61,801 bases of DNA from Candidatus Ryanbacteria bacterium CG10_big_fil_rev_8_21_14_0_10_43_42 (GTDB taxonomy: Bacteria; Patescibacteriota; Minisyncoccia; Ryanbacterales; 2-02-FULL-48-12), in contig PFEF01000003.1 in the NCBI GenBank assembly GCA_002793915.1, positions 104,648 through 166,448 of the forward strand, in the 5' to 3' direction. Made by a program: the position numbers and the translations under genes. The notes below the pieces were generated by a model. That model had not been told where the DNA came from. It did not search any database and was given only the letters and a program-made list of their open reading frames with translations. Of this stretch, positions 44,940 through 57,152 are shown in pieces (the stretch's first letter is position 1; every line of letters begins with the position of its first letter).

Positions 44940-45026
44940 GGCGTCATTATAGCAGTTTAATGAGAGGGTGCCTATTTCTTTTTCGGTACAACGAGAACGA
45001 ATGCGTCAATATACTTCGCTTTTTGT

Positions 45027-45440
45027 TTAGTTGTTTTCGACATATTTTTTAAAATTATCCAGAATTGCTTGCCAACCAGAGCGTTGCACTTCCTCACTAT
45101 TCTCGCTTTCAGGATCAAACGTTTCTATTACTTTTACTCCTTCAGCAGTTTCTTTAAATTCAACTTTTACTTTACGACCATCATCCATAACGGATTCGAG
45201 TAATTCATTTTCTTTAATTTCAGTATAGGTAAGGATAAAATCAAAACTCTGACTTTTATCTTTTGCAGACATTGTGATTTTTAATTTTCCGCCAATACGC
45301 AGATCATTTTCAGGAGATAATGCCTCCCAATCATCAGAAGCAAACACCCATTTTGTGAGGTGTTTAGGCTCATTCCAGCACTCCCATACTTTTTCTATTG
45401 GAGCAGTAACTGTTGTTTGTACTGTTATTGTATTTTCCAT
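45027..45440 (-). CDS. SRPBCC/AHSA1-domain protein
   Basis: 137 aa; PIEKVWECWNEPKHLTKW...GWQAILDNFKKYVE typical of Aha1-like SRPBCC proteins. Confidence 0.7.
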   Translation of the reverse strand: MENTITVQTTVTAPIEKVWECWNEPKHLTKWVFASDDWEALSPENDLRIGGKLKITMSAKDKSQSFDFILTYTEIKENELLESVMDDGRKVKVEFKETAEGVKVIETFDPESENSEEVQRSGWQAILDNFKKYVENN

Positions 45441-45441
45441 A

Positions 45442-46344
45442 TCATTTTTTTTCTCCGGCTTTTTTGAGATCTGCTATGATTAATTTTTTCATTTTAAGCA
45501 TTGCCGGCGTTGTTTTTTCCGGATTCTTCCCCATTAATTCATTCATATTTTCAGGAACTATTTGCCACGAAACACCATACCTGTCTTTTACCCATCCACA
45601 CTGTTCAGATTCCGGCACAGCTGAAAGTTTCTCCCAATAGTAATCGATCTCTTGTTGATCTTTACAATTAACCATAAGAGAAACAGCTTCGTTGAATGCG
45701 AATTTGTGCATTTTACTACTGCCATCCATCGCAGCAAACCACTGACCTTCCAGCTTGAAATCAGTAAACATAACAGAGCCCTCCTTACCTCCCCCTGCTT
45801 CTGCACCGGCAGGATAACGAGCAATAGCGCCTCGTTTTGCATCCTTGAAGACAGAAAGATAAAAATCGGTTGCTTCTTCTGCCCTGTCACATGTGTCGGT
45901 AACAAAAAGCATTGATGGGATAATTAGAGGACGCTCATCGCCTTCGGGTTTTGTGTAGATTAACTGCCAGGAGAATCCATATTTATCTTCTACCCATCCA
46001 TATCGTTCACTAAACGGATACTCCTGGAGAGGCATAAGTGCCTTTCCGCCATCTAATAATTTTTCCCATATATCATCAATTCTTTTCCGTGCATCTTTGT
46101 CTTGTGATGGATCAAAATTAACCATTATGGAAATAGAAGGATTAAATTTAAAAAGCGGACCGGCACTAATTGCCATAAAGCTATATCCCATAACTTCGAA
46201 ACCAACAATATCACAGTCACCTGACGGTGTGTCTTTAATTTGAGTTTTATACAACACCTTAGAATCAGGAAAGGCGGAAGTATAAAACTCAGCGGCTTCT
46301 ATAGCCTCTTTATCAAACCATAAATGTGGGATAATTTTTTGCAT
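45442..46344 (-). CDS. Two-domain VOC/PhnB-like (3-demethylubiquinone methyltransferase-like fold) protein
   Basis: Repeated pattern PHLWF...AEFY...F...YGFSWQ / RYGVSWQI in both halves. Confidence 0.65.
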   Translation of the reverse strand: MQKIIPHLWFDKEAIEAAEFYTSAFPDSKVLYKTQIKDTPSGDCDIVGFEVMGYSFMAISAGPLFKFNPSISIMVNFDPSQDKDARKRIDDIWEKLLDGGKALMPLQEYPFSERYGWVEDKYGFSWQLIYTKPEGDERPLIIPSMLFVTDTCDRAEEATDFYLSVFKDAKRGAIARYPAGAEAGGGKEGSVMFTDFKLEGQWFAAMDGSSKMHKFAFNEAVSLMVNCKDQQEIDYYWEKLSAVPESEQCGWVKDRYGVSWQIVPENMNELMGKNPEKTTPAMLKMKKLIIADLKKAGEKK

Positions 46345-46686
46345 AATTATAAGAGTAATTTCTTAGTAATGCCATTATAGCAAATTTTAATGATTAATTA
46401 GAGTAATGGTGCTAATATCCGAACATACAAATTTTCATAATCTCTTTTTTACCAAGAGGCCGGAACTTGCGCCGCGAAATATCGGAGTGAATCACCCACG
46501 GCCTTGCTTCAATGTGAATACAAACCGCGTATGCTCATCCGAGGTTAAACACCACCGACATAATTCTGTTCACTAAAAGTGAAGATAAGTCGTCTATTCA
46601 CCTGCGAACTAAGCGTGAAGAAGAGATGTGGAATGATATAGATGTTCACTAAGTCCTATATCATATTAGGAAGGGAAATCCTTACA

Positions 46687-46715
46687 AACGGAACCTTTAA
46701 TGGTTCCGTTTTTTC
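46687..46715 (+). terminator. Orphan plus-strand intrinsic terminator with no upstream plus-strand gene
   Basis: CGGAACC-TTTAAT-GGTTCCG followed by TTTTTT. Confidence 0.6.
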
Positions 46716-46782
46716 TTGCTTTTTGCAGTACACATGCTATGAATGACAGCAGATTTTTGTACTTGAAAAGGAGAACAATGAA

Positions 46783-47277
46783 ATGGGAGAAAACAATCAG
46801 TCCGAGAATGTTAGACAGGAAAACCATCGTACGGAATACAATATTGTAGCTACAACATGGAGATTTTTCGTAAGCCTTCGGTTCATCGTAGCGGCGTTTG
46901 CAGTAACGTTGCATTCGGCACTTCTTACTTTGTACAGTCAGTTTTATCAACAACAGACCGTGCTTAGCCAGATTAGTATTCTAGGGCTTCCAAGTGTTGG
47001 TACCATTGCTGCTCTTGCTATTTTTCTGATTGAATTGCGGAACATTGATCTTTATATTCTCATGATACAGCGGGGCAGGGAATTGGAAGATGTTTTAGAT
47101 TTGCAAGATGCGCATTTTGCCAGATTGGGAGAGCCTTACACACGACCTCTAACGGTTTACGATCGTCTGATCAGCCATACCATGGGTATTTATATCCTTC
47201 ATGTTGGCGTCGCAACACTTTGGGTTCATTTGTTTGTTTTAAGCATATGGACATTGAGTAAAAATACTGTTACATGA
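46783..47277 (+). CDS. Hypothetical membrane protein
   Basis: 164-aa ORF after AAGGAG; 4 TM helices. Confidence 0.45.
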   Translation: MGENNQSENVRQENHRTEYNIVATTWRFFVSLRFIVAAFAVTLHSALLTLYSQFYQQQTVLSQISILGLPSVGTIAALAIFLIELRNIDLYILMIQRGRELEDVLDLQDAHFARLGEPYTRPLTVYDRLISHTMGIYILHVGVATLWVHLFVLSIWTLSKNTVT

Positions 47278-47288
47278 AAGGAGTGTAT

Positions 47289-47423
47289 ATGACAACAAAA
47301 GAATTTGTAGAGGCGCTGGAGCAACACAAAAAACACCCCGCTTGGTTTGTGTTTCCAGTTGTTACTGCGTGTACTACTGGTTTCATTGGTTGTCTGGTCG
47401 GGATAGTTTACTTTTTTTTCTAA
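47289..47423 (+). CDS. Possible 44-aa membrane peptide (not in the ORF track)
   Basis: AAGGAG SD 6 nt upstream; MTTKEFVEALEQHKKHPAWFVFPVVTACTTGFIGCLVGIVYFFF; followed by a terminator. Confidence 0.35.
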   Translation: MTTKEFVEALEQHKKHPAWFVFPVVTACTTGFIGCLVGIVYFFF

Positions 47424-47442
47424 TTGCTCTTTTACGGTATGT

Positions 47443-47486
47443 AAACGGTTTTTCATCATAACCTGCATTGAAAAACCGTTTTTTAT
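47443..47486 (+). terminator. Intrinsic terminator
   Basis: 11-bp stem AAACGGTTTTT/AAAAACCGTTT plus a T-run. Confidence 0.6.
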
Positions 47487-47594
47487 TGTAGCGTTATAGT
47501 ATAATGGTACATGCCGTTTCTTCTTTTTTTGAATCGTTCACCGCGCGCGGACGTTTTTTCATTTTCACAAAAAAGAAAATGAGGATAACAGCAA

Positions 47595-47643
47595 ATAACG
47601 GATAACGGGATAACGGGGTCAGGGATAACGGGGTCAGGGACGC
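47595..47643 (+). repeat. Forward array of GATAACGGGGTCAG-type units (left end of element copy 1)
   Basis: ATAACGGATAACGGGATAACGGGGTCAGGGATAACGGGGTCAGGGACGC. Confidence 0.85.
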
Positions 47644-47857
47644 TTTTTTGGTCGCCAAGGATCTCGAACGGTTGATTCAAGATTGAATCGGTTAATAATG
47701 CGGTTGATCCACTGTTCCCTGCCATACGGTTTGCCTCTGTTTACACTGTAGCGCAATTCTTCCAGTTCATCATCTTTTTCTGGTTCATTGACATAAGAAA
47801 TGTAATCATCGGGCATATCAGTGGGCCATTTTGGATAAGCGTCCCTGACCCCGTTAT
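47625..47857 (-). mobile_element. 233-bp non-autonomous deletion derivative of a RAYT/IS200-like element (copy 1), 19-bp perfect terminal inverted repeats
   Basis: ATAACGGGGTCAGGGACGC at 47625-47643 and its reverse complement at 47839-47857. The interior equals the last about 190 bp of a Y1 transposase gene. Confidence 0.75.
47634..47816 (-). pseudogene. C-terminal 60-codon remnant of a RAYT-type transposase gene (intact ATG-initiated ORF)
   Basis: MPDDYISYVNEPEKDDELEELRYSVNRGKPYGREQWINRIINRFNLESTVRDPWRPKKRP, 52/60 identical to the tail of the 56411-57085 protein. Confidence 0.7.
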
Positions 47858-47885
47858 CCGTTATCTGACCCCGTTATCCGTTATC
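47839..47885 (-). repeat. Reverse array of the same motif (right end of copy 1)
   Basis: GCGTCCCTGACCCCGTTATCCGTTATCTGACCCCGTTATCCGTTATC. Confidence 0.85.
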
Positions 47886-47959
47886 TCCAGAATGATATTA
47901 TAACCACTCTTTGCGATAGAGAGCTTATGGAGCTATGGCGGGAGCGGCTGGCGTATATT

Positions 47960-48688
47960 TTAAGAATTGAAAATACCGTCAAAAGCAAGTGTTAAAAACT
48001 TTTCAGCTGCCGCTGCCGTGTATGATACGCCATTTTCCGGATCAACAAGCTCGTGATTAAAACTGGGAAACTCAACCCATCCGCGCGAAAAGCAGGCAGT
48101 TGTACTGTTATAAATTTTTTGCTGTGATTCTTTTGGCACAACATCATCTTTGCCGCCGTGAAGGAAAAACAGCGAACCGTGAAATTCATTTAAAGACCCC
48201 AACAAAACAGACGTATCAGGTAATGTTGATAGAAGCGGTTTTGTTGTAGTAGGACTTTTCCCGCAACCGCTTCCTATCATAACAACTGCTTGCATTGCCT
48301 GTAATACGTTTGGGCAACCAATAAGAATAGTGCCGCCAAACGACATTGCAACAGTCCCCCACACAACTTCTTCCCGCAAGATATTCTCTTTGCAATATGT
48401 AAACGCGTTTTGTACATCATCGCATTCCTGCTGAAATGTTTTTCCGATAAACGCATCATTTTTTTCTGCATTACGCCTCCCCGTGTTAAAAAGAAACACG
48501 TTATTTTTATTTCCCAACAGCTCTGCCAGTTTGTTATCCCACGATGGTTTACTCTGTGTACCTACTAGGACATGCTGTCCATACAGCCCTTTCAAAACCA
48601 AAACAGCTTGGTTTGTTTTTTCTTTCGCAGGGTAATGAAAAATAGCGGTTTCCCCGAAGAATACGGATGACAACTTGTGCACTTTCAT
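47960..48688 (-). CDS. Alpha/beta-hydrolase fold protein (dienelactone hydrolase-like)
   Basis: Nucleophile-elbow-like VAMSFGG, late HGGKDDVVP and FNHEL segments. Confidence 0.5.
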   Translation of the reverse strand: MKVHKLSSVFFGETAIFHYPAKEKTNQAVLVLKGLYGQHVLVGTQSKPSWDNKLAELLGNKNNVFLFNTGRRNAEKNDAFIGKTFQQECDDVQNAFTYCKENILREEVVWGTVAMSFGGTILIGCPNVLQAMQAVVMIGSGCGKSPTTTKPLLSTLPDTSVLLGSLNEFHGSLFFLHGGKDDVVPKESQQKIYNSTTACFSRGWVEFPSFNHELVDPENGVSYTAAAAEKFLTLAFDGIFNS

Positions 48689-48735
48689 AATAATAGAATA
48701 CGCCCGTTACTCGGTATGAGCAACAGGCGTTGTTT

Positions 48736-49944
48736 TTACCTAAATTCCGGTTTTTCTCCGGAATCAACGAGCTGTACTTCGTTTCCAACTTGATCTTTTG
48801 CGGATGTGCCAAACCGATATGTCATTGGCGGAAAATCTGCAACTTTCCAAGCAGGTATAGCGTGGTGATAGTTTCGGATTTCCGAGATGATCTGTTCATA
48901 TGGCACAGAAAAATGAGCGCAGAAAGCTCTTGATAATCTTACCAACAAATACCTGCCAATCATACCGTCAAAAACGTGGCTATATTGTGATTGCACTGTT
49001 GTACCGGATTCCGTACCCGCAACGTGTTTGGTGAACAGTGGCAAGCCGAGCGCTGATCTTGTGCGCGAGTCGCTGTATATGCCTTGAAAATCGCGATGCA
49101 CCGCCCGCCGTAATTTCAAATTCGCGTCTATTTCCGCCAACGTGTTTTGGCCGTGAAGTTCCGGCAGAAGTCCCCGAACTGAAATCAACAACGTCCATGC
49201 CTCAAGAATGGGTCCAATGATTTCTGCAACGAAATACTCTAGCGGATGCCGATTTCCGTGCAGCTTTACAATCTGCACCAAAAGCGGCTCATCGTCCGGC
49301 TCTTGCGGATCGGAAGCATACAGTGAATGGTACGGCATTAAAACGCGTACATCTTCCACTGGAGGATGGGGACGTGTCTCCCGGAATATAACGCCGGATC
49401 CTTCATAATCCCCACCCTGCACAACCACTCCAAGAGATTCGGGCAAAAATGCATAACGTCCCGTATCGGAACGCTCATTGCACATACTTCTTAAATCGGA
49501 ACAAACAGCGATGCTGTGTTCAATGGAACTTCGGTGTAATCTCCGTATAAAGCGGAAATGCTTTTTATCCAGGTCGGTTTTGATGTAAACGCGTAAGCCG
49601 TTTTCTGTCAGCAAAGTACGCGTAGAGCTTGTTGGCTGTGTGCATACAGTACCAGCCACATCCAACCCAGGCCGCGCAACGTCAGGATGCCAAAAGAAGC
49701 GATATTTTCCGCCAATCCGTACCCAATCAAGCAGTTCTTTCGGCGGTACAGATTGCAACACGATACATTTTTCAAGAGCCAAGAGCGTATAGGGCAGATT
49801 AATATGCGGTATGGGACCTTGCGGGTCATACCGCGCGTCAACATCTGAATAATCGTAGAAGCTACCCTTCGAATCATTTAAGTACCGTTCTCCGTATATC
49901 GTGTGGCTTAACGCATCACCAACAAACAAGTCGCCTAGCTTCAT
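48736..49944 (-). CDS. IucA/IucC-like (NIS-synthetase-like) core protein, tentative
   Basis: FFWHP, PTSSTRTL, YIKTDLDK and ELHGQNTL resemble the HPWQ / SxRT / K / HxQN landmarks of IucA/IucC enzymes; recognised by eye only. Confidence 0.35.
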   Translation of the reverse strand: MKLGDLFVGDALSHTIYGERYLNDSKGSFYDYSDVDARYDPQGPIPHINLPYTLLALEKCIVLQSVPPKELLDWVRIGGKYRFFWHPDVARPGLDVAGTVCTQPTSSTRTLLTENGLRVYIKTDLDKKHFRFIRRLHRSSIEHSIAVCSDLRSMCNERSDTGRYAFLPESLGVVVQGGDYEGSGVIFRETRPHPPVEDVRVLMPYHSLYASDPQEPDDEPLLVQIVKLHGNRHPLEYFVAEIIGPILEAWTLLISVRGLLPELHGQNTLAEIDANLKLRRAVHRDFQGIYSDSRTRSALGLPLFTKHVAGTESGTTVQSQYSHVFDGMIGRYLLVRLSRAFCAHFSVPYEQIISEIRNYHHAIPAWKVADFPPMTYRFGTSAKDQVGNEVQLVDSGEKPEFR

Positions 49945-50107
49945 CTTAATCCCCCTTTCAGCGAGCTAATTTTACGAGAAGGCTACTCTTTTTAAAACGC
50001 CTTGTCAATGTCCACTTTCGGTAACACTTTATTTTTATCTAATGCGTGTTCCCGGCGAGCTACGCTTTGATAAAACCCTTCTTATCGAAAAACTTTAGAA
50101 TTTATTA

Positions 50108-50142
50108 CATAACGGGGTCAGTACATAACGATAACGAGGTCA
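50108..50142 (+). repeat. Forward array of the motif flanking the IS
   Basis: ATAACGGGGTCAG TAC ATAACGATAACGAGGTCAG. Confidence 0.75.
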
Positions 50143-50145
50143 GCC

Positions 50146-51109
50146 ATGCTCTGTAGAAAACCCCTATCCCCAAACAATCATCACGTTATGGGTGAATAAC
50201 CGGAGCATGATTTCTCTACACTGACTCCAGTAGGAACGTGCGCGAAGGAAGGAACCGAGATTACGTTTGATCATGGAGTTTACCGTTTCCACTTGCCATC
50301 TCTGACCATAGAGTTTCTTGTTGAAACGGAGAGCCATGAGTTTACGCTATTTTCCGGTAGGAAGCTTAGTGGTCTTACGACCTCCATGGGGAGGAATGAT
50401 GGTGCGAGTATGATGCTTTTCACGAGCAAATACGTGTGCCTTCTCACTATCATATCCGGCATCAGCTAAGAGCGTCTGGAAAGAGATATTCTTTTGAGCT
50501 TCCGTAACCGCTTTCTTGAAGTGTACATGATCGGGGAATGGTCCTCGTCCGGGTATGCCGGAGAGTATGATATGAGATTTACAATCAACAATAATTCCCA
50601 CCTTGGGATATCGCGTATAGTGTGTCATTTGGTAATAGGAAGCACTTTTATCTCTTCGTTTTACAAAGTATTTACTGATATGGTGGGATTCTAACTCCGT
50701 ACCGTCCAGAGCAGACAAGAGTATCTTTTTTTTCATGATCTTTCCTTTCACCGCAAGCGAAAGTATTTCTGTAATGAGTTTATCGAGTGTATTCTTTTTA
50801 GTAAGTCTCTGAGCTGCTTTTTGCAACGTAGTATAGTGAGGTATTTCTTCCAGTTCCAGTATTCTTTTGAGATCTGAAGAGTCTTCAATGATCTCTCCTA
50901 TGCCTCTGTAATCTTTTTTGAAAAATTCTTTAAGTACCAGGCAGGCGACAAGTTGATGTTGGGTGAACTTCTTGGGACTTTTGATGGTACGGTAGGCGGG
51001 TATTGATTGTTTAGCGGTTTGATATGCTACACGCGCTATATTGTTTGGAGATTTTGATGTTGTCATTACGCATATTGTACCATGGGATGTCTATGATTTC
51101 TACAGAGCA
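50146..51109 (-). mobile_element. IS4/IS5-type insertion sequence (964 bp between 13-bp inverted repeats)
   Basis: TGCTCTGTAGAAA at 50146-50158 and its reverse complement at 51097-51109 enclose a DDE transposase gene; no clear target-site duplication. Confidence 0.7.
50164..51066 (-). pseudogene. DDE (IS4/IS5-family) transposase interrupted by an in-frame TAG at 50347-50349
   Basis: LSALDGTE (D), LLADAGYDS (D). After the TAG the same frame continues RKLMALRFNKKLYGQRWQVETVNSMIKRNLG..., carrying the Y-x2-R-x3-E-x6-K signature. Confidence 0.7.
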
Positions 51110-51112
51110 GGA

Positions 51113-51142
51113 CTGACTCCGTTATTGCTGACCCCCGTTATC
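51113..51142 (-). repeat. Reverse array of the motif flanking the IS
   Basis: CTGACTCCGTTAT TG CTGACCCCCGTTATC. Confidence 0.75.
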
Positions 51143-51357
51143 TAACGATTTCGCTAGAGCTTTTTCTTTTGAAATAATGAATAGTCAGGTGGGGTAGCGT
51201 ATGCGCTCTCAGGTAAGGGGAGGTTATGTTATATGTATAAATAAGATTAAAATCTAATTTGGTCCACTTACCGACAACCCATCGAAAAATCTTTTTATGT
51301 AACAATACTAAGAAATTCTAGCTAGTTATGGAAGTCTTTGATAAACTATAAGTATAT

Positions 51358-52221
51358 ATGAAGGCAAGTATAGATGATCGTAAAACAAAAGAATCGGATA
51401 AAGCTACTAAAGATATTGTCCATTCTTGTATTAGTCTCCTAAATAAGGAGAGGAAGCTTTTGGTGTTTCCCATGCTCTCATTTGCGTTGCTAGTAACAAC
51501 TCTTCTCCTTTTCGGAGTTTATATAGATGAAATCCAAGAACTCTTTGATTATTTAACGAATAGAGATGTGTCCATATCTATTCCTATTCTTATTGGTCTC
51601 TTCATAATATTTTTTATAGAATCATTCTTTCAGGCAGCGCTCATAACAAGTACACATGTAGCAATAAAAGGGAAAAGAATAAGTATTGGATATGGTATTA
51701 CTAAAGCTTTCAATAAAATTGCAAATATCTTGCTTTGGAGCATTATTTCTACTCTAATGAATTTTGTTGACAGGTTATATGGTAAAAGCTTTGTTGGAAA
51801 AATATTTGGTCAAATTACGCTATTTGCATGGAGGATATTAACATTGTTCTCTCTACCTATTCTCATCCTTACAAATGCAGATATGGTAACAGCGATTAAG
51901 CAGTCGGCGAGCGTGCTCAAATCATCATTTGGTGAAAATATTGTAGGAAATATCAAGATATGGTTATTCCTGTTGCCCTATGTTTTTCTTTCAGTGATCG
52001 CTCTTGTCATTGGATTTCGGAGTGAAGGTATTTTCACGTCCGGTATATTTCTAGGTGGAGGTATTATCAGCCTCCTCTTTCTGTTCGTTCTAGGTAGGAC
52101 ATTGGGATCTGTATTTAGAACAGTACTTTTTGTTTATGTTGACGAGGGGAAGATCGCACACGGATTTCTAAAAGCGTCACTAGATAAATCTTTTAAGACT
52201 AAGGGCGAAAAAAATATCTAA
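51358..52221 (+). CDS. Hypothetical multi-pass membrane protein
   Basis: 287-aa ORF, about 6 TM helices, visibly AT-rich. Confidence 0.45.
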   Translation: MKASIDDRKTKESDKATKDIVHSCISLLNKERKLLVFPMLSFALLVTTLLLFGVYIDEIQELFDYLTNRDVSISIPILIGLFIIFFIESFFQAALITSTHVAIKGKRISIGYGITKAFNKIANILLWSIISTLMNFVDRLYGKSFVGKIFGQITLFAWRILTLFSLPILILTNADMVTAIKQSASVLKSSFGENIVGNIKIWLFLLPYVFLSVIALVIGFRSEGIFTSGIFLGGGIISLLFLFVLGRTLGSVFRTVLFVYVDEGKIAHGFLKASLDKSFKTKGEKNI

Positions 52222-52274
52222 AGAAGAATTAACATACTAAACATGCCTGCCTGCCGTCAAACAGGTTCTAACGT

Positions 52275-52325
52275 GATAACGGGGTCATGGATAACGGGGC
52301 ATAACGATAACGGGGTCAGGGACGC
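52275..52325 (+). repeat. Forward array of the motif (left end of copy 2)
   Basis: GATAACGGGGTCATGGATAACGGGGCATAACGATAACGGGGTCAGGGACGC. Confidence 0.85.
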
Positions 52326-52539
52326 TTTTTTGGTCGCCAAGGATCTCGAACGGTTGATTCAAGATTGAATCGGTTAATGATGCGGTTGATCCACTGTTCC
52401 CTGCCATACGGTTTGCCTCTGTTTACACTGTAGCGCAATTCTTCCAGTTCATCATCTTTTTCTGGTTCATTAACATAAGAAATGTAATCATCGGGCATAT
52501 CAGTGGGCCATTTTGGATAAGCGTCCCTGACCCCGTTAT
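52307..52539 (-). mobile_element. 233-bp non-autonomous RAYT-derived element (copy 2)
   Basis: Same length and same 19-bp IRs as copy 1; 2 mismatches to 47625-47857 by hand alignment. Confidence 0.75.
52316..52498 (-). pseudogene. C-terminal 60-codon remnant of a RAYT-type transposase gene (copy 2)
   Basis: Encodes the same 60-aa peptide as 47634-47816. Confidence 0.7.
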
Positions 52540-52882
52540 GAGCATCCGGCAGTTCTGCGACAGCGCAAAAAACCAACTAGAAAAGTGCAATGACTTTGAA
52601 TCAAAGCGCAAGTTCCTGACCGACCACATTGAGAAAGTGGTTTATCAAAACTACAAAGCAACAATCATCGGATCGGTACCCATCAGATCATCAGCTTACG
52701 AAGAAATAGACCTGCCGAATGACGAAAGCAAAATCCCATTTCGGATTGAAGGTGAAATTGATACGAGTTTGCTACATCGCGGTCCGCGACAAAAGTTTGC
52801 TGAGGATGGGCGACTAAAAAAATATGGATCGGGTAAATGCGGTATAGAAAAAATACCTTGTAAACATATAAGATTATTGTAA
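52538..52882 (+). pseudogene. Probable 3-prime fragment of a serine-recombinase-like gene, truncated at the element end
   Basis: The ATG is supplied by the IR (CCCCGTTATG). KRKFLTDHIEKVVYQNYKATIIGSVPI resembles the C-terminal region of large serine recombinases by eye. Confidence 0.3.
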
Positions 52883-52893
52883 TAATCCTCAAT

Positions 52894-53385
52894 ATGTTTA
52901 TAGCTCACTTTCCAGCAGGATATATTCTGACTAAGAAACTCCAAGAGAAACAGCGAGTAAATAAATACCTTTGGCTAGGCCTTGTTGCCAGTATATTACC
53001 CGATATCGATCTCCTATGGTTTTATCTGGTCGATAACCGCCAAACTCTACATCATGACTATTGGCTACATGTGCCGATTTTCTGGGTGGGTATCTTTGTC
53101 ATATGGTACTTATTCCTTTTAATCTCTAAACAACTCAACCAAAAATATCTCCTTCCGACAGTAATATTTTTCACAAGTATCACCCTTCATCTACTTCTGG
53201 ACACAATAGCAGGAGGCATTGCCTGGTTTTATCCATTCTCAGATACCAGCTTTGTCCTAATCGACGTTCCCGCAAAATATGGTTGGTGGGTCTGGAATTT
53301 TGTCTTTCACTGGTCGTTTCTTCTTGAGCTTGGGATTATACTCTGGGCCATAACTGTTTTTAGTAAATCACAGGGAAAGAAGTAA
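52894..53385 (+). CDS. YdjM/DUF457-like membrane-bound metal-dependent hydrolase
   Basis: MFIAHFPAGY..., LPDIDLL, HHDYWLH histidine/aspartate pattern in a 4-TM protein. Confidence 0.55.
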   Translation: MFIAHFPAGYILTKKLQEKQRVNKYLWLGLVASILPDIDLLWFYLVDNRQTLHHDYWLHVPIFWVGIFVIWYLFLLISKQLNQKYLLPTVIFFTSITLHLLLDTIAGGIAWFYPFSDTSFVLIDVPAKYGWWVWNFVFHWSFLLELGIILWAITVFSKSQGKK

Positions 53386-53416
53386 AAAGCCAGATATCCA
53401 TATCTGGCTTTTTTAA
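53385..53416. terminator. Bidirectional terminator
   Basis: AAAAAGCCAGATAT-CCAT-ATCTGGCTTTTTT. Confidence 0.7.
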
Positions 53417-53434
53417 GTGGAGATGACGAATAGA

Positions 53435-53764
53435 TCAGTCTGCTTCGAATGCTACGCGACTCACCTTCCCATCTTTAACAAAGATACGGCACTGAGCTCC
53501 ATTGTTTGTACCATAATTATATTCAGTCTCTCCAGTATATTCCCACAGAAAACCTTTTCCACTTGTGTATTTTTCATATGGCTTCATTGTGTTGAATGCT
53601 TCCTCTTGAGTCATTCCGACTTGCACTTTATTGCAAGTTTTAAAGTAGGGAGTAAACCTTATTATTAACGGATAAAACAATGCCAACAAAAGTAATACTG
53701 TCAGAATTACAACAATAGAAATAACAATGCCTAGAAATATCTTTTTTCCTTTAGTCATGCTCAT
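53435..53764 (-). CDS. Membrane-anchored small protein (BamE/SmpA-like fold by eye), putative immunity protein for the upstream RHS toxin
   Basis: Start overlaps the RHS stop by 4 nt; TM anchor plus VQVGMTQEEAFNTM...VKDGKVSRVAF. Confidence 0.4.
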   Translation of the reverse strand: MSMTKGKKIFLGIVISIVVILTVLLLLALFYPLIIRFTPYFKTCNKVQVGMTQEEAFNTMKPYEKYTSGKGFLWEYTGETEYNYGTNNGAQCRIFVKDGKVSRVAFEAD

Positions 53765-55728
53765 AGATTTGAAAGAGTTTGAACTAATTGGGTGAGACTT
53801 TTTACCAAGCTAGTAAGATTTTCCACTAAATTCGGTTGGTATGTAGAATTCGCTGAATATGATTCAATGCGCTGGCCATATCGATCTCCATGTGCTGAGC
53901 TTGGTGAATTATATGCTTTTCCAATACTGTAGGGTGTAGTTGCTCCTTGTTGCTGTATGTTCTGGATAACTTTTGCTCCAGTTAGAATATTTCTTTGTGG
54001 ATCATCTAATTGTCTTGGATCGGCTCCGACACTTAGTGCAGTATTCATAGAAACCTGCATTTCACCTACACCACCATTAACTCTATCGAAAAACGCCTGC
54101 TCGTATAATGCTTCTCCAGGAACAAGGTGCGATTGTTCTTCGTAATAGATTGACCTGATAATATTTTCACTAACGCCAGTTTCCCTGCTTGCTGCCTGAA
54201 TGTTTCCATGATTTCGGGCAATTGCTTCTAACGCACGGTCTCTTCCGCCAAAAACTTCTCCAGTTTTAAGAATTAAACCGTTATCTCTACACAAACATGT
54301 TACATCATAACCATGCCAACTCATAAATATCGGACTAGGATTTACACCATTTCCAGTTGGATCAACTAAAATTAAAGGATTGTTTCTTGCATAGCTGTAC
54401 ATATTCATCTGCTGCGGATCGGCGAGGAATTGTCCCGGATTGTCTCGAGATGCCGGATCTTGCGAAGTAAATCTTCCCTCGCTTGGATTCTGATATCTCG
54501 CACCCGCATAATTCAACCCGGTAGAATCATCAAATTCGTATCCAGTGAATTTTCTCTTCTCATTAAAATTCGTTTCCTGTTTATCAACCCGCAAGCTCCC
54601 AAACGGGTAGTAGTCGAGTGTCTGCACCAGCTCATCACTATCATCCGTTATCGCACTAGTTCCTGAAAGATGATCAGTGTGGATATAGCTTGTGGTAGTT
54701 GCGGTCTCACCTCCGCCCTCACTTGTTGCGGGTTTGAAGGATGCGGCTGATTGTGACCAGTCAGCGCCTCCCGTAACCGTGTTAGACCAGCTCATGGTGA
54801 CACTGCCTGCAGGAGTTTTAGGTCCTTCATAGCTTATGGCGCTGTCAAAGGGCGTTGTTTCTACCAATCCAACTCGTGTTTGACCCGCTCCCACTGCAGG
54901 TGTTCCTTGAGAGCCGACTTCAGAGAAGATAATGTCCACTACCCATGCATTATCCGCAATCGTTGTTACACTGGTGCTTAAGGAATTGTTATTTGTGAGG
55001 GTTGATCCATTTTGGGCGTCAAGCGGACTTAATTGATCAACGCCAGTCAGTGATATTGCTGCTCCCGTTGCTCCGCTGTTTGTACCATTTAATGTTACCG
55101 CTATAGTATTAGCACCACTTGAAGGATTCGCAAGATACCATAAACTAGTGGAGTTATTATCCGCATCATTATCGTCCTCGCGCACATTGGTCATGGCAAC
55201 GCTGTTGTATGTAATGCCTGTTACCGTTCTATCAGAATCTGTGGAATCGTTCATAGCAACACCAACAACTAAAAGCCTGTTAGTGCCGCTTGTGGTATGT
55301 GACCAATTGAAAGAACTTACGTTTAACTTACTTCCGCTGTTGCTTGTCGCGTCATATGCGATAGTTTCAGGCGTTCCTCCCCCACCCCCTGCGGTCACTT
55401 CAACGGTAGAGACTAATTGCCCGTTAGCAAAAATATGTTTGGTGGTTGTAGCACTTGAAGTGGAATAGTACTTGTTGGCGTACGTGGTTGTTGCTTGCCC
55501 TGAGCCTGTCGAAGGGCCTTCTTTGAGGAATACGCGGCTTCCCGTGTGATCGTAGCCGTAATTCGATGCTTGTGTGGTCGTCGTCGCTTTTAGTAATCGA
55601 CCTTTGGATTCTGAAATTTGTTGTGAAGGAACTTCGTGTGAGGTGGGTGTTACTGGTGTGTTTGCGAATACCAAAAATGGCGATACTAGGAACGCTGTGG
55701 TGAGAAATATGATGAGAAGGCGGATCAT
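53761..55728 (-). CDS. Secreted RHS-repeat-associated-core protein with C-terminal lytic-transglycosylase-like toxin domain
   Basis: Signal peptide; core hallmark TDHLSGTS...YYPFGS...KFTGYEFDDSTGLNYAGARYQNPSEGRFTSQDP...MYSYARNNPLILVDPTGN; tail with YYEEQSH, GVGEMQV, KAYNSP (SLT-like E-S / GLMQ / AYN pattern). Confidence 0.75.
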   Translation of the reverse strand: MIRLLIIFLTTAFLVSPFLVFANTPVTPTSHEVPSQQISESKGRLLKATTTTQASNYGYDHTGSRVFLKEGPSTGSGQATTTYANKYYSTSSATTTKHIFANGQLVSTVEVTAGGGGGTPETIAYDATSNSGSKLNVSSFNWSHTTSGTNRLLVVGVAMNDSTDSDRTVTGITYNSVAMTNVREDDNDADNNSTSLWYLANPSSGANTIAVTLNGTNSGATGAAISLTGVDQLSPLDAQNGSTLTNNNSLSTSVTTIADNAWVVDIIFSEVGSQGTPAVGAGQTRVGLVETTPFDSAISYEGPKTPAGSVTMSWSNTVTGGADWSQSAASFKPATSEGGGETATTTSYIHTDHLSGTSAITDDSDELVQTLDYYPFGSLRVDKQETNFNEKRKFTGYEFDDSTGLNYAGARYQNPSEGRFTSQDPASRDNPGQFLADPQQMNMYSYARNNPLILVDPTGNGVNPSPIFMSWHGYDVTCLCRDNGLILKTGEVFGGRDRALEAIARNHGNIQAASRETGVSENIIRSIYYEEQSHLVPGEALYEQAFFDRVNGGVGEMQVSMNTALSVGADPRQLDDPQRNILTGAKVIQNIQQQGATTPYSIGKAYNSPSSAHGDRYGQRIESYSANSTYQPNLVENLTSLVKSLTQLVQTLSNL

Positions 55729-55806
55729 AGGAATTTAAAAGTTACCAACAACTTTATAGGATTTTGTTGGATATTCACGGCCGTGGCGGTAGGGTTGTGT
55801 TGGAAT

Positions 55807-56175
55807 TTAACTATTCTGGTTTGGTAAATCAATACAAATAGTATCAACACTTTCCTTCACTTTTATAAATAAGACAAAGACTTCACTCAAAGAATAGCCC
55901 ATTCGAGTACTAAATTCGTAAATATTTAATTCTCGCATTAAATCCGATAACATGTTTCGTAAAACTTTGATCTCGTTGCAGGAAAAATTCACTTCTTCAT
56001 TTGCGGTTATATTTCTAACCATCTCGTCAATATGTTTTGCCTCTACTTCAGAAAACGAGGCAGGCGCACCGAATCGTGACAACTCAATACCTAATAATAA
56101 TTCTCGATATGCTCCCTTTATGATCTTGATTTCAACTTGTTCAAATCTCATATTTGTAATAATTAAACTTATCAT
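55807..56175 (-). CDS. Hypothetical protein, possible immunity protein of the truncated toxin upstream
   Basis: 122-aa AT-rich ORF overlapping the upstream ORF by 4 nt. Confidence 0.35.
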   Translation of the reverse strand: MISLIITNMRFEQVEIKIIKGAYRELLLGIELSRFGAPASFSEVEAKHIDEMVRNITANEEVNFSCNEIKVLRNMLSDLMRELNIYEFSTRMGYSLSEVFVLFIKVKESVDTICIDLPNQNS

Positions 56176-56401
56176 TGCTCCAATTGCCTATCGTAGTAAT
56201 CTGCTCCATCTTTTGGACGGAATGCTGTACCGTAATCTGAACTGTTACGATCAATAACAATATATGTGTTTGAGTCTGAATCATAATATTGAGTACGGTT
56301 CCTCGGCAGATCGTCAGTACGAGAAGGATTATTTATCACGTTTTCAATATGCCTCTTGAAATCATCTTGGCTACGGATACCCAATTCTTCAAATTCTGAC
56401 G
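56172..56401 (-). pseudogene. 3-prime remnant of a toxin-like gene cut off by the RAYT element
   Basis: The ORF N-terminus (MATKKASLTPLS) is read from the element IR. The remainder ...FKRHIENVINNPSRTDDLPRNRTQYYDSDSNTYIVIDRNSSDYGTAFRPKDGADYY looks like a small polymorphic-toxin C-terminal module. Confidence 0.25.
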
Positions 56402-57143
56402 ATAACGGGGTCAGGGACGCTTTTTTGGTCGCCAAGGATCTCGAATGGTTGATTCAAGGTTAAATCGGTCAACGATGCGGCTGGTCCATTGTTCCCTACC
56501 ATACGGTTTTCCTCTGTTTACACTATAGCGCACTTCTTCTAGTTCATCATCTTTTTCTGGCTCGTTGACATAGGAAAGATAGTCATCAGGAATTCCGGTT
56601 GGCCATTGGGAAAGGAGTTTTTGCTGTTCTTTGGTACCATGTTGTCTGCGCCATAAACTGGACCATTTCCAGTTTTCTGCTCGTTTGATGAGTTTAGCAC
56701 GTAATGGATTGCGTTCTACATATTTACAGAGTTGTATAAAATATTCGTTGGTTTGAACAGGAAATGATTTATACCTGCCTTGATAGAGATGTCCTGATCC
56801 GATTGTTTTATGGAATACATGCCATCTTCGGGTGTGGGTAAGCGTAAACCATCCCATGAACTTCTGTAGATCGCCGTCTTTTTTAGGATGGAGTACCAGA
56901 TGCCAATGGTTGGGCATGATGCAGTATGCAAGAATACGCATCGGTACTTGTTCTTTTGCTTCAGCGAGCGTTATTTCAAACAATTGATAATCTTTGGGTT
57001 CATTAAATATCCGCATGCGTGCATTTGCGCGGTTGATTATATGATAGATGATTCCTCCTACATCGGTGCGTTGGTTGCGGGGCATGGAATAACCATAGCA
57101 AGTGGAGAAATTATAGGTCAATAAGCGTCCCTGACCCCGTTAT
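56402..57143 (-). mobile_element. Full-length RAYT/IS200-like (HUH Y1 transposase) element with 19-bp perfect inverted repeats
   Basis: ATAACGGGGTCAGGGACGC at 56402-56420, reverse complement at 57125-57143. Confidence 0.75.
56411..57085 (-). CDS. REP-associated-type tyrosine (Y1, HUH) transposase
   Basis: IYHIINRANAR, HUH motif MPNHWHLVL, catalytic Tyr context LCKYVERNPLRAKL; start trimmed to ATG 57083-57085; the TGA stop lies inside the IR. Confidence 0.75.
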   Translation of the reverse strand: MPRNQRTDVGGIIYHIINRANARMRIFNEPKDYQLFEITLAEAKEQVPMRILAYCIMPNHWHLVLHPKKDGDLQKFMGWFTLTHTRRWHVFHKTIGSGHLYQGRYKSFPVQTNEYFIQLCKYVERNPLRAKLIKRAENWKWSSLWRRQHGTKEQQKLLSQWPTGIPDDYLSYVNEPEKDDELEEVRYSVNRGKPYGREQWTSRIVDRFNLESTIRDPWRPKKRP

Positions 57144-57152
57144 TCGTTATCG
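57125..57152 (-). repeat. Reverse array of the motif (right end of the full element)
   Basis: GCGTCCCTGACCCCGTTATTCGTTATCG. Confidence 0.8.

Follow-up and report, generated by a model that had tools for sequence, protein, structure and literature searches.

A 61,801-nucleotide stretch of contig PFEF01000003.1 (positions 104,648 to 166,448 of the forward strand; assembly GCA_002793915.1) of Candidatus Ryanbacteria bacterium CG10_big_fil_rev_8_21_14_0_10_43_42, hereafter the window, carries a cluster of mobile DNA flanked by short repeat arrays that face each other in pairs. An earlier note, made from the letters alone, had placed eight such arrays, each pair consisting of a forward array to the left and a reverse array to the right of what it encloses, and both the coordinates and the pairing hold on re-reading of the sequence. 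The paired arrays do bracket mobile DNA, namely a Y1 transposase gene, two derivatives of such a gene (234 bp each, where the note gave 233) and a DDE insertion sequence (IS) of the IS5 family. Four loci in the region are copies or remnants of a single family of IS-like elements: one autonomous element, two miniature elements (minis) and one relic without a body. The arrays, which we call stutter arrays, consist of partial copies of the end of the element that they border, set head to tail and made locally. The parts of the four loci are listed below; TRF stands for Tandem Repeats Finder.

47584-47623, plus strand: left stutter array of mini-element 1, read directly as GATAAC (47584-47589), AATAACG (47594-47600), GATAACGG (47601-47608) and GATAACGGGGTCAGG (47609-47623)
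47624-47857/47858, minus strand: mini-element 1, 234 bp, with both inverted repeats kept (47623-47645 and 47837-47859, 22-23 nt)
47859-47885, plus strand: right stutter array of mini-element 1, CGTTATC / TGACCCCGTTATC / CGTTATC, TRF score 84
50108-50146, plus strand: forward half of the relic, CATAACGGGGTCAG, TA, CATAACG, ATAACGAGGTCAG, then CCA touching the IS5 end
50147-51109, minus strand: IS5-family insertion sequence, 963 bp, ends TGCTCTGTAGAAA / TTTCTACAGAGCA as defined from relatives
51110-51142, plus strand: reverse half of the relic, GGA, CTGACTCCGTTATT, G, CTGACCCCCGTTATC
52275-52305, plus strand: left stutter array of mini-element 2, GATAACGGGGTCATG / GATAACGGGG / CATAAC
52306-52539, minus strand: mini-element 2, 234 bp, 2 differences from mini-element 1
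56401-57143, minus strand: autonomous element, about 750 bp, inverted repeats 56401-56424 and 57120-57143
56411-57085, minus strand: Y1 transposase gene, 224 aa from ATG (an alternative TTG at 57121 would give 236 aa)
57144-57152, plus strand: one short stutter unit, TCGTTATC, beyond the end that lies 5' of the Y1 gene

The 14-mer GATAACGGGGTCAG, which the note had taken as the repeat unit, matches the window 12 times at no more than 2 mismatches, and all of these matches lie within 47609-57144. Shuffled versions of the window gave a mean of 0.32 matches, and none of 100 shuffles reached 12. At 3 mismatches, matches outside 47.6-57.2 kb were not above chance in the window. All 12 matches follow the forward-left, reverse-right pairing. 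The three highest-scoring tandem repeats of the window are the arrays themselves (TRF scores 84, 68 and 57, against no more than 41 elsewhere), and the tandem-repeat scan found no comparable arrays in the window outside the element region. Over the whole region, including the arrays, the window agrees at 100% identity with contigs from three other samples, so the arrays are not an assembly artefact. The tandem repetition is thus real, but the 14-mer is not its proper unit, since it represents only the outer part of a longer inverted repeat. According to a repeat finder, the functional unit is a terminal inverted repeat of 22-24 nt, GATAACGGGGTCAGGGACGCTT / AAGCGTCCCTGACCCCGTTATC, and the two copies are 96-100% complementary in the window elements.

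The Y1 gene of the autonomous element encodes a protein that matches the Pfam profile Y1_Tnp (PF01797) at E = 1.6e-17, which bears out the earlier identification. With the NCBIfam models, the protein scored 72.8 bits for REP_Tyr_transpos, under the cut-off of 80, and 17.6 bits for transpos_IS200, for which the cut-off is 55. An AlphaFold2 model (predicted local distance difference test score, pLDDT, 81) has as its best match in the PDB the entry 4ER8, TnpAREP bound to a repetitive extragenic palindromic (REP) hairpin, at E = 6e-8, with the transposases of IS200 and IS608 behind it, and identity to TnpAREP is 18%. Because of the two NCBIfam scores and this structural match, we consider the gene to be RAYT-like rather than IS200-like. 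The HUH motif NHWH (H60-W-H62) and the tyrosine motif YVERNP (Y122-VER-NP) are invariant in an alignment of the window protein with 17 relatives. Pfam detects no helix-turn-helix (HTH) domain in the C-terminal part, where the model has a small helical region of three short helices (residues 169-208) followed by a disordered basic tail. This tail is conserved at the C-termini of the aligned proteins and resembles an AT-hook (P-G/W-R-P-K-K-G-S; window 56411-56440); the codons for it double as the inner arm of the 3' hairpin described below, so that protein and DNA signal share the same bases.

Homologues of the Y1 protein number 6781; all of the named ones are labelled Paceibacterota or Patescibacteria. 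Nearly all are 224 aa long, which indicates that the ATG at 57085 is the true start. Many of them sit on contigs some 1 kb long, which repeats that interrupt assembly would be expected to produce, and an identical protein (P0001, 90% identical to that of the window) occurs beside at least four different gene sets. The short contigs and the varied contexts suggest a multi-copy, IS-like habit; for the present genome itself, 62 kb were covered. The element also seems to carry its own promoter beside the hairpin, judging from the sequence. A TATAAT box follows directly after the 5' hairpin, within the approximately 35 nt that separate the hairpin from the ATG (57086-57120, minus strand), and a TATGATATAAT-like sequence stands at this position in most relatives.

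The minis match the full copy in two segments only, 181/207 positions over 56401-56607 and 23/23 over 57121-57143, and are therefore internal deletions of about 513 bp. Of the Y1 gene, mini-element 1 retains roughly 190 nt from the 3' part. The two 234-bp derivatives must be moved in trans. Mini-element 2 has no array on its right side. Minis that arose by internal deletion and kept both ends occur in two subfamilies: the window type retains the 3' part of the gene, and a mini of the other subfamily (L050, 5690-6040) retains the first 100 nt or so at the 5' end. The arrays of the latter are unusually long (six units or more on the 3' side), and its repeated unit includes GGTGG beyond the usual tip. 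In both window minis an intact open reading frame (ORF) of 60 aa with its own ATG is preserved (47634-47816 and 52316-52498, minus strand), and it encodes only the C-terminal helical region and the basic tail of the transposase. In addition, the ATG of a 114-aa ORF at 52538-52882, which has no Pfam match, overlaps the last bases of mini-element 2 (GTTATGAGC), and this mini may have truncated or re-started the gene.

For comparison we used about 90 related Patescibacteria loci from genomes and metagenomes, at 53-90% identity. Read from outside to inside, each end has a variable tip that is characteristic of the subfamily (GATAAC in the window), a conserved core GGGGTCAG, and a variable inner arm. 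An inverted repeat with a GGGGTCAG-like core was found in 73/73 loci having enough flanking sequence; the core is sometimes GGTGTCAG or GGGGACAG, and in all of 57 distinct ends its GGGG, C and A are unchanged. The tip co-varies with the inner arm, as in AAATGG/CCATTT and AAAGGT/ACCTTT. Over the 57 ends, tip and inner arm pair in 76% of cells; shuffles gave 68.9%, with 0/500 reaching the observed value, and partners slid out of register gave 36-61%. Moreover, compensatory changes occur at three base pairs of the stem. Because of this pairing and its covariation across subfamilies, each end is, from its sequence, an imperfect hairpin of the REP kind, in which the conserved core occupies the loop and its surroundings.

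According to the earlier note, the unit departed from the REP picture in being a direct repeat that forms no hairpin. This view is not borne out, since the tip arm pairs with an inner arm that lies just past the 14-mer, and only the outer, truncated copies are devoid of an inner arm. Folding of the window ends as single-stranded DNA speaks against a hairpin, however, as the energies of the window subfamily were no better than those of shuffles (z from -0.9 to +0.7 for the ends, and from -0.6 to 0 for the hairpins), and the structure is convincing only through the covariation across subfamilies. The hairpin of this subfamily has a stem of 5 + 2 bp with a bulge, and this weakness explains why the palindrome was missed at first reading. 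A second proposed departure was the fusion of the innermost unit to the transposase stop codon. The overlap itself is real: the stop codon TGA (56411-56413, minus strand) lies in CCCTGACCCC of the end, within the repeat core, and CTGACCCC supplies the TGA stop at 51/78 distinct 3' ends. It is not a departure from what is known, because overlaps with the 3' end of the gene ("3'ov") have been described for TIRYT genes (PMC3733652).

The comparison set shows the origin of the arrays. At least one extra copy of the end's own tip 7-mer was present within 100 nt outside the element at 53/110 distinct ends, against a mean of 1.6 and a maximum of 5 when the tip of another element was used as a control (200 permutations). 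Extra tips in the opposite orientation were found at 1/62 loci on the 5' side and 0/51 loci on the 3' side. All of the 144 array units begin at the tip, and 92/144 lie within 2 nt of the next unit. Their lengths are bimodal, with one class of 6-9 nt that ends in the G-run and another of 12-13 nt that ends at TCAG, and a tail of longer units extends 20-55 nt into the element. The left array of mini-element 1 conforms to this pattern: each of its units begins at the tip of the end and finishes in the G-run or right after TCAG. Since the arrays carry each subfamily's own tip, they were made locally from the end and are not a pre-existing common target. At one locus (L006) the inner units have the current tip GTTTTC and the outer ones GTTATC, which implies that new units join on the element side and displace older ones outward. 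The arrays are polymorphic between strains, as they differ between strains that are otherwise 98-99% identical; the contig pairs concerned also differ elsewhere, by 10-24 substitutions per 1.3-2.3 kb, and we do not claim a raised rate of change. At another locus (L034, 1-110) 3'-type units (CCATTTC and similar) form an orphan array that runs in the opposite orientation just outside the 5' array of the element, and it may be the remnant of a neighbouring copy that was lost. We found no description of tip-anchored arrays of this kind in the two open-access papers that name TIRYTs or in the open-access RAYT literature that we read. They are apparently the undescribed part of the finding, and they are mechanistically informative.

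The outer boundary, fixed at the transposon tip, suggests a site-specific nick; a second, looser nick is suggested by the variability of the inner boundary. A precedent for such a pair of nicks is TnpAREP of Escherichia coli, whose cleavage of single-stranded DNA around a bound REP requires only C|T and which also performs strand transfer (Ton-Hoang et al., PMC3333891). According to the model proposed for the tandem amplification of BIMEs (bacterial interspersed mosaic elements) in the same study, a first nick is followed by primer extension, a second nick in the newly made strand and joining to the first 5'-phosphotyrosine end, and the segment between both sites would be duplicated (PMC3333891). 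We believe, with a probability of roughly 0.6, that the stutter arrays arise by similar cleavage, extension and rejoining by the transposase at the terminal hairpin. The hairpin-bound transposase would nick single-stranded DNA at the hairpin foot and then nick a second time at a nearby, less specific site; limited synthesis and strand rejoining would follow. The segment between the two nicks would thereby be duplicated, leaving direct, partial copies anchored at the tip next to a functional hairpin. More tentatively, and at less than even odds, the arrays might be a natural ordered record of the cleavage and rejoining that a RAYT-type transposase performs at its own ends, the units nearest the element being the most recent. 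A further possible role is that of a sacrificial buffer by which the functional end stays intact.

Several points weigh against this mechanism. To our knowledge, biochemistry is available only for the one enzyme of E. coli and for no TIRYT. The ends are inverted, which leaves one end per strand in a given hairpin orientation, and simple single-strand excision of the IS608 type is not obviously applicable. The junctions have 0-2 nt of possible microhomology and are compatible with polymerase slippage. The inner break adjoins a G in 9/18 long units, against a background of 14% G; the numbers are small, and such a nick preference is indistinguishable from a microhomology of 1 nt. Two proteobacterial relatives were inspected and had no clear arrays; array formation may depend on the host or on the subfamily. 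Finally, no empty site was found, as two neighbouring proteins looked up in other assemblies led only to 100%-identical contigs with the same insertions.

Replication slippage or template switching could generate arrays independently of the transposase if the hairpin stalls the polymerase and the short segments adjoining it are copied again. The units are indeed short (mostly 6-13 nt) and direct, they often end in a G-run, their junctions have 1-2 nt of microhomology, and the variation of the arrays between close strains is like that of microsatellites. However, slippage has no reason to respect the end of a transposon, yet the outer boundary of every unit is the tip and only the inner boundary varies. 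Some units extend 20-55 nt into the element, where there is no repeat to slip on, comparable arrays are absent from the rest of the window, and at L006 the innermost, hairpin-bearing copy alone appears to be the source of new units. We therefore regard slippage as unlikely.

The arrays might also be footprints of excision and homing, in which imprecise excision leaves a partial end and an element later re-inserts beside the remnant, so that the arrays represent a preferred target. Elements of the IS200/IS605 family insert beside a specific short sequence that is related to their ends, which provides a precedent. In the window, 50108-51142 resembles two facing arrays without a body, like a relic of excision or deletion, and the oppositely oriented orphan array beside the L034 element is also in keeping with this scenario. 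Nevertheless, it requires many returns to exactly one nucleotide and recognition of 6-nt units that have no hairpin, and it predicts mixed orientations, which the near absence of opposite tips contradicts. Facing-core doublets without a body were absent from approximately 130 other loci, where the matches were 3' coding sequence (G-R-P codons) or IS ends. We consider this explanation improbable, and cleavage and rejoining by the transposase remains the reading that we prefer.

The fourth locus is a palindromic pair of end fragments that has lost its body, and it encloses the DDE element, which its profile matches place in the IS5 family. Its gene is broken into pieces of 239 aa and 57 aa, compared with 297-305 aa in intact relatives, and since the reading frame is in two pieces, the transposase of the window copy is a pseudogene. 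In Pfam, DDE_Tnp_1 scores 21.6 bits for the 239-aa piece (cut-off 23) and 24.0 bits for the 57-aa piece. The NCBIfam model transpos_IS5_2 is the top model for both, at 80 and 48 bits; these scores are below its cut-off of 140 because the gene is broken, and the intact relatives are annotated "IS5 family transposase". The ends of the lineage, TGCTCYGTAGAA... / ...TTCTACRGAGCA, were defined from relatives and are perfect inverted repeats of 13 nt, as in TGCTCTGTAGAAA of the window copy. The same ends are conserved among relatives whose flanks are unrelated.

Copies related to the window IS5 element sit inside hairpin loops with 9-bp duplications, shown here in brackets: AAAAAGG[TGTCTGGTA]CCATTT at L100 and AATGG[TGGCTGTCC]CCATTT at L126. 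As short IS5 contigs sometimes share the same left flank and have different right flanks, perhaps through assembly or recombination, flanks were counted singly. In 14/31 distinct flanks, from five IS sub-lineages, the GGGGWSAS core ends exactly 3 nt from the IS end, against a background of 3.3%; by eye, the remaining flanks are mostly the complementary half of such a hairpin. The forward half of the window relic is like those 14, its core stopping exactly 3 nt before the IS end, and at L089 an IS5 copy touches a partial end upstream of a Y1 gene. This IS5 lineage recognises the end hairpins: insertion takes place at one fixed position of the loop and duplicates 9 bp. The relatives of the window copy document this, and that copy would have inserted likewise. 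At the window site itself two features argue to the contrary: a recognisable 9-bp duplication is absent (GGTCAGCCA and GGACTGACT are identical at 5/9 positions), and both flanks are outer halves, so that a further event is required. Possibly the target was a symmetric palindrome of two facing arrays that has since decayed, or possibly each end of one element carried an IS copy, and recombination between these copies deleted the body.

The third proposed departure was that the arrays also bracket a DDE transposase, from which the earlier note had inferred either end arrays shared by two transposase classes or a preferred insertion target. That the arrays are terminal or binding repeats common to both transposases is very improbable, for although both gene types are bracketed by the motif in the window, the IS5 element has its own perfect 13-nt ends, the 9-bp duplications of loop sequence in its relatives mark the hairpin as a target and not an end, and a few IS5 copies are at motif-free sites, e.g., ATCTTGAAC. 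We accordingly reject the arrays as IS5 ends; the DDE element is a guest in the repeat and not its user. The idea of a preferred target survives for the IS5 lineage, but what is targeted is the hairpin and not the array.

Insertion into REP sequences is known for IS1397/ISKpn1, ISPpu9/10, ISRm22 and others, and IS5 is among the five families involved (Tobes & Pareja, 2006, PMC1525189). The present lineage resembles these in being of the DDE type and in placing its copies at a fixed position inside palindromic repeats. It differs in that the target is the loop of a TIRYT-type hairpin in Patescibacteria and in that the 9-bp duplication spans the loop. One further difference is found in the P0178-type relatives (L106-L115), which are exactly central in near-perfect palindromes of 85-100 nt belonging to an unrelated repeat family (...GTCATTCCCG...CGGGAATGAC...). 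The flanks of this type are inverted, not direct, and the central 9-mer has opposite orientations at two sites.

The mobile elements lie within an accessory patch of the window (45000-57000) that is compositionally atypical and locally rearranged. The GC skew is -0.10 to -0.24 across most of 1-45 kb and near zero over 45-57 kb. The same patch contains an IucA/IucC-like gene (48736-49944) and a gene for a 655-aa protein with an SLT domain (53761-55728).

RAYT-like genes with flanking inverted repeats have been named TIRYTs, and the units that they form TIRtrons; many of the repeats share GGGGWSAS, some are self-complementary, and they can overlap gene ends (Di Nocera et al., 2013, PMC3733652). 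The same consensus is quoted by Quentin et al. (2018, PMC6006769), according to whom most TIRYTs belong to TnpAY1 subclass 2.1, with a median length of 238 aa, the motif Y---NP and a C-terminal HTH-like tail. Subclass 2.1 corresponds to RAYT Group 1, which is among the most IS-like RAYT groups (Bertels et al., 2017, PMC5581495). The present element shares with TIRtrons a Y1 gene of about 225-240 aa with Y---NP (224 aa and YVERNP in the window), terminal inverted repeats instead of GTAG-tagged REPs, a core GGGGTCAG that fits GGGGWSAS, and an overlap with the 3' end of the gene. It differs in its HUH motif, NHWH, which is close to but not among the NHVH and NH[YF]H published for subclass 2.1, and in that Pfam detects no C-terminal HTH domain, where Bac_DnaA_C, HTH_23 or HTH_28 have been published and the model here has its small helical region. 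The expansion in Patescibacteria, the minis and the stutter arrays outside both ends are likewise not part of TIRtrons as published, and the arrays are unmentioned in PMC3733652 and PMC6006769. We consider the element to be of the TIRtron type, and its membership in subclass 2.1 to be probable. Plasmid relatives in Pseudomonas aeruginosa and Rhodospirillum rubrum (28-30% identity), annotated merely as "transposase", also have inverted repeats with GGGGACAG or GGGGTCAG.

Two other known systems share features with the family. The REPtron of E. coli (YafM; PMC3333891, 4ER8) has the best-matching fold, flanking inverted hairpin repeats and a tandem amplification of repeats (BIME-2) that is attributed to relaxed cleavage and strand transfer. 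Here, in contrast, the hairpin foot lacks GT[AG]G, the gene is mobile and probably multi-copy where that of the REPtron is single-copy and domesticated, and the amplified unit is a truncated half-hairpin in direct orientation and not a whole REP pair in alternating orientation. A conserved GTAG was not seen in the 57 ends, whose tips are GATAAC, AAAT, AAAA and similar. A canonical GTAG REPtron (RAYT groups 2/3) was rejected on account of the missing tag and the REP_Tyr_transpos score below its cut-off.

With the IS200/IS605 elements IS608 and ISDra2, the family has in common the HUH/Y1 chemistry, a length of about 0.7 kb and hairpin ends, and non-autonomous short derivatives exist among IS200/IS605 elements as well. 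Unlike them, it has Y---NP and not Y---Q, and inverted repeats in place of two similarly oriented subterminal hairpins. The absence of Y---Q, the near-perfect inverted repeats and the transpos_IS200 score far under its cut-off led us to reject an assignment to IS200/IS605.

The three departures from the RAYT/REP picture that had been claimed for this locus thus largely dissolve. The family is a well-populated, IS-like branch in Patescibacteria of a known kind of element, the TIRtron, that has been little studied, and the hairpin-targeting IS5 lineage is a new example of a known behaviour. In metagenomes of Patescibacteria, assemblies are broken both by the Y1 elements and by the IS5 lineage homing into them. 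The way in which inverted flanking repeats are mobilised by RAYT and TIRYT enzymes has been a question since the discovery of REPs, and the family offers thousands of natural copies with co-varying ends, together with minis that demonstrate mobilisation in trans. Furthermore, a fixed outer site and favoured positions of the inner break, in the G-run and just after TCAG, can be read from the short arrays, and together these features provide testable predictions of the cleavage sites. If the arrays are indeed an ordered record, those of thousands of loci in Patescibacteria would reveal where and how these transposases cut in vivo.

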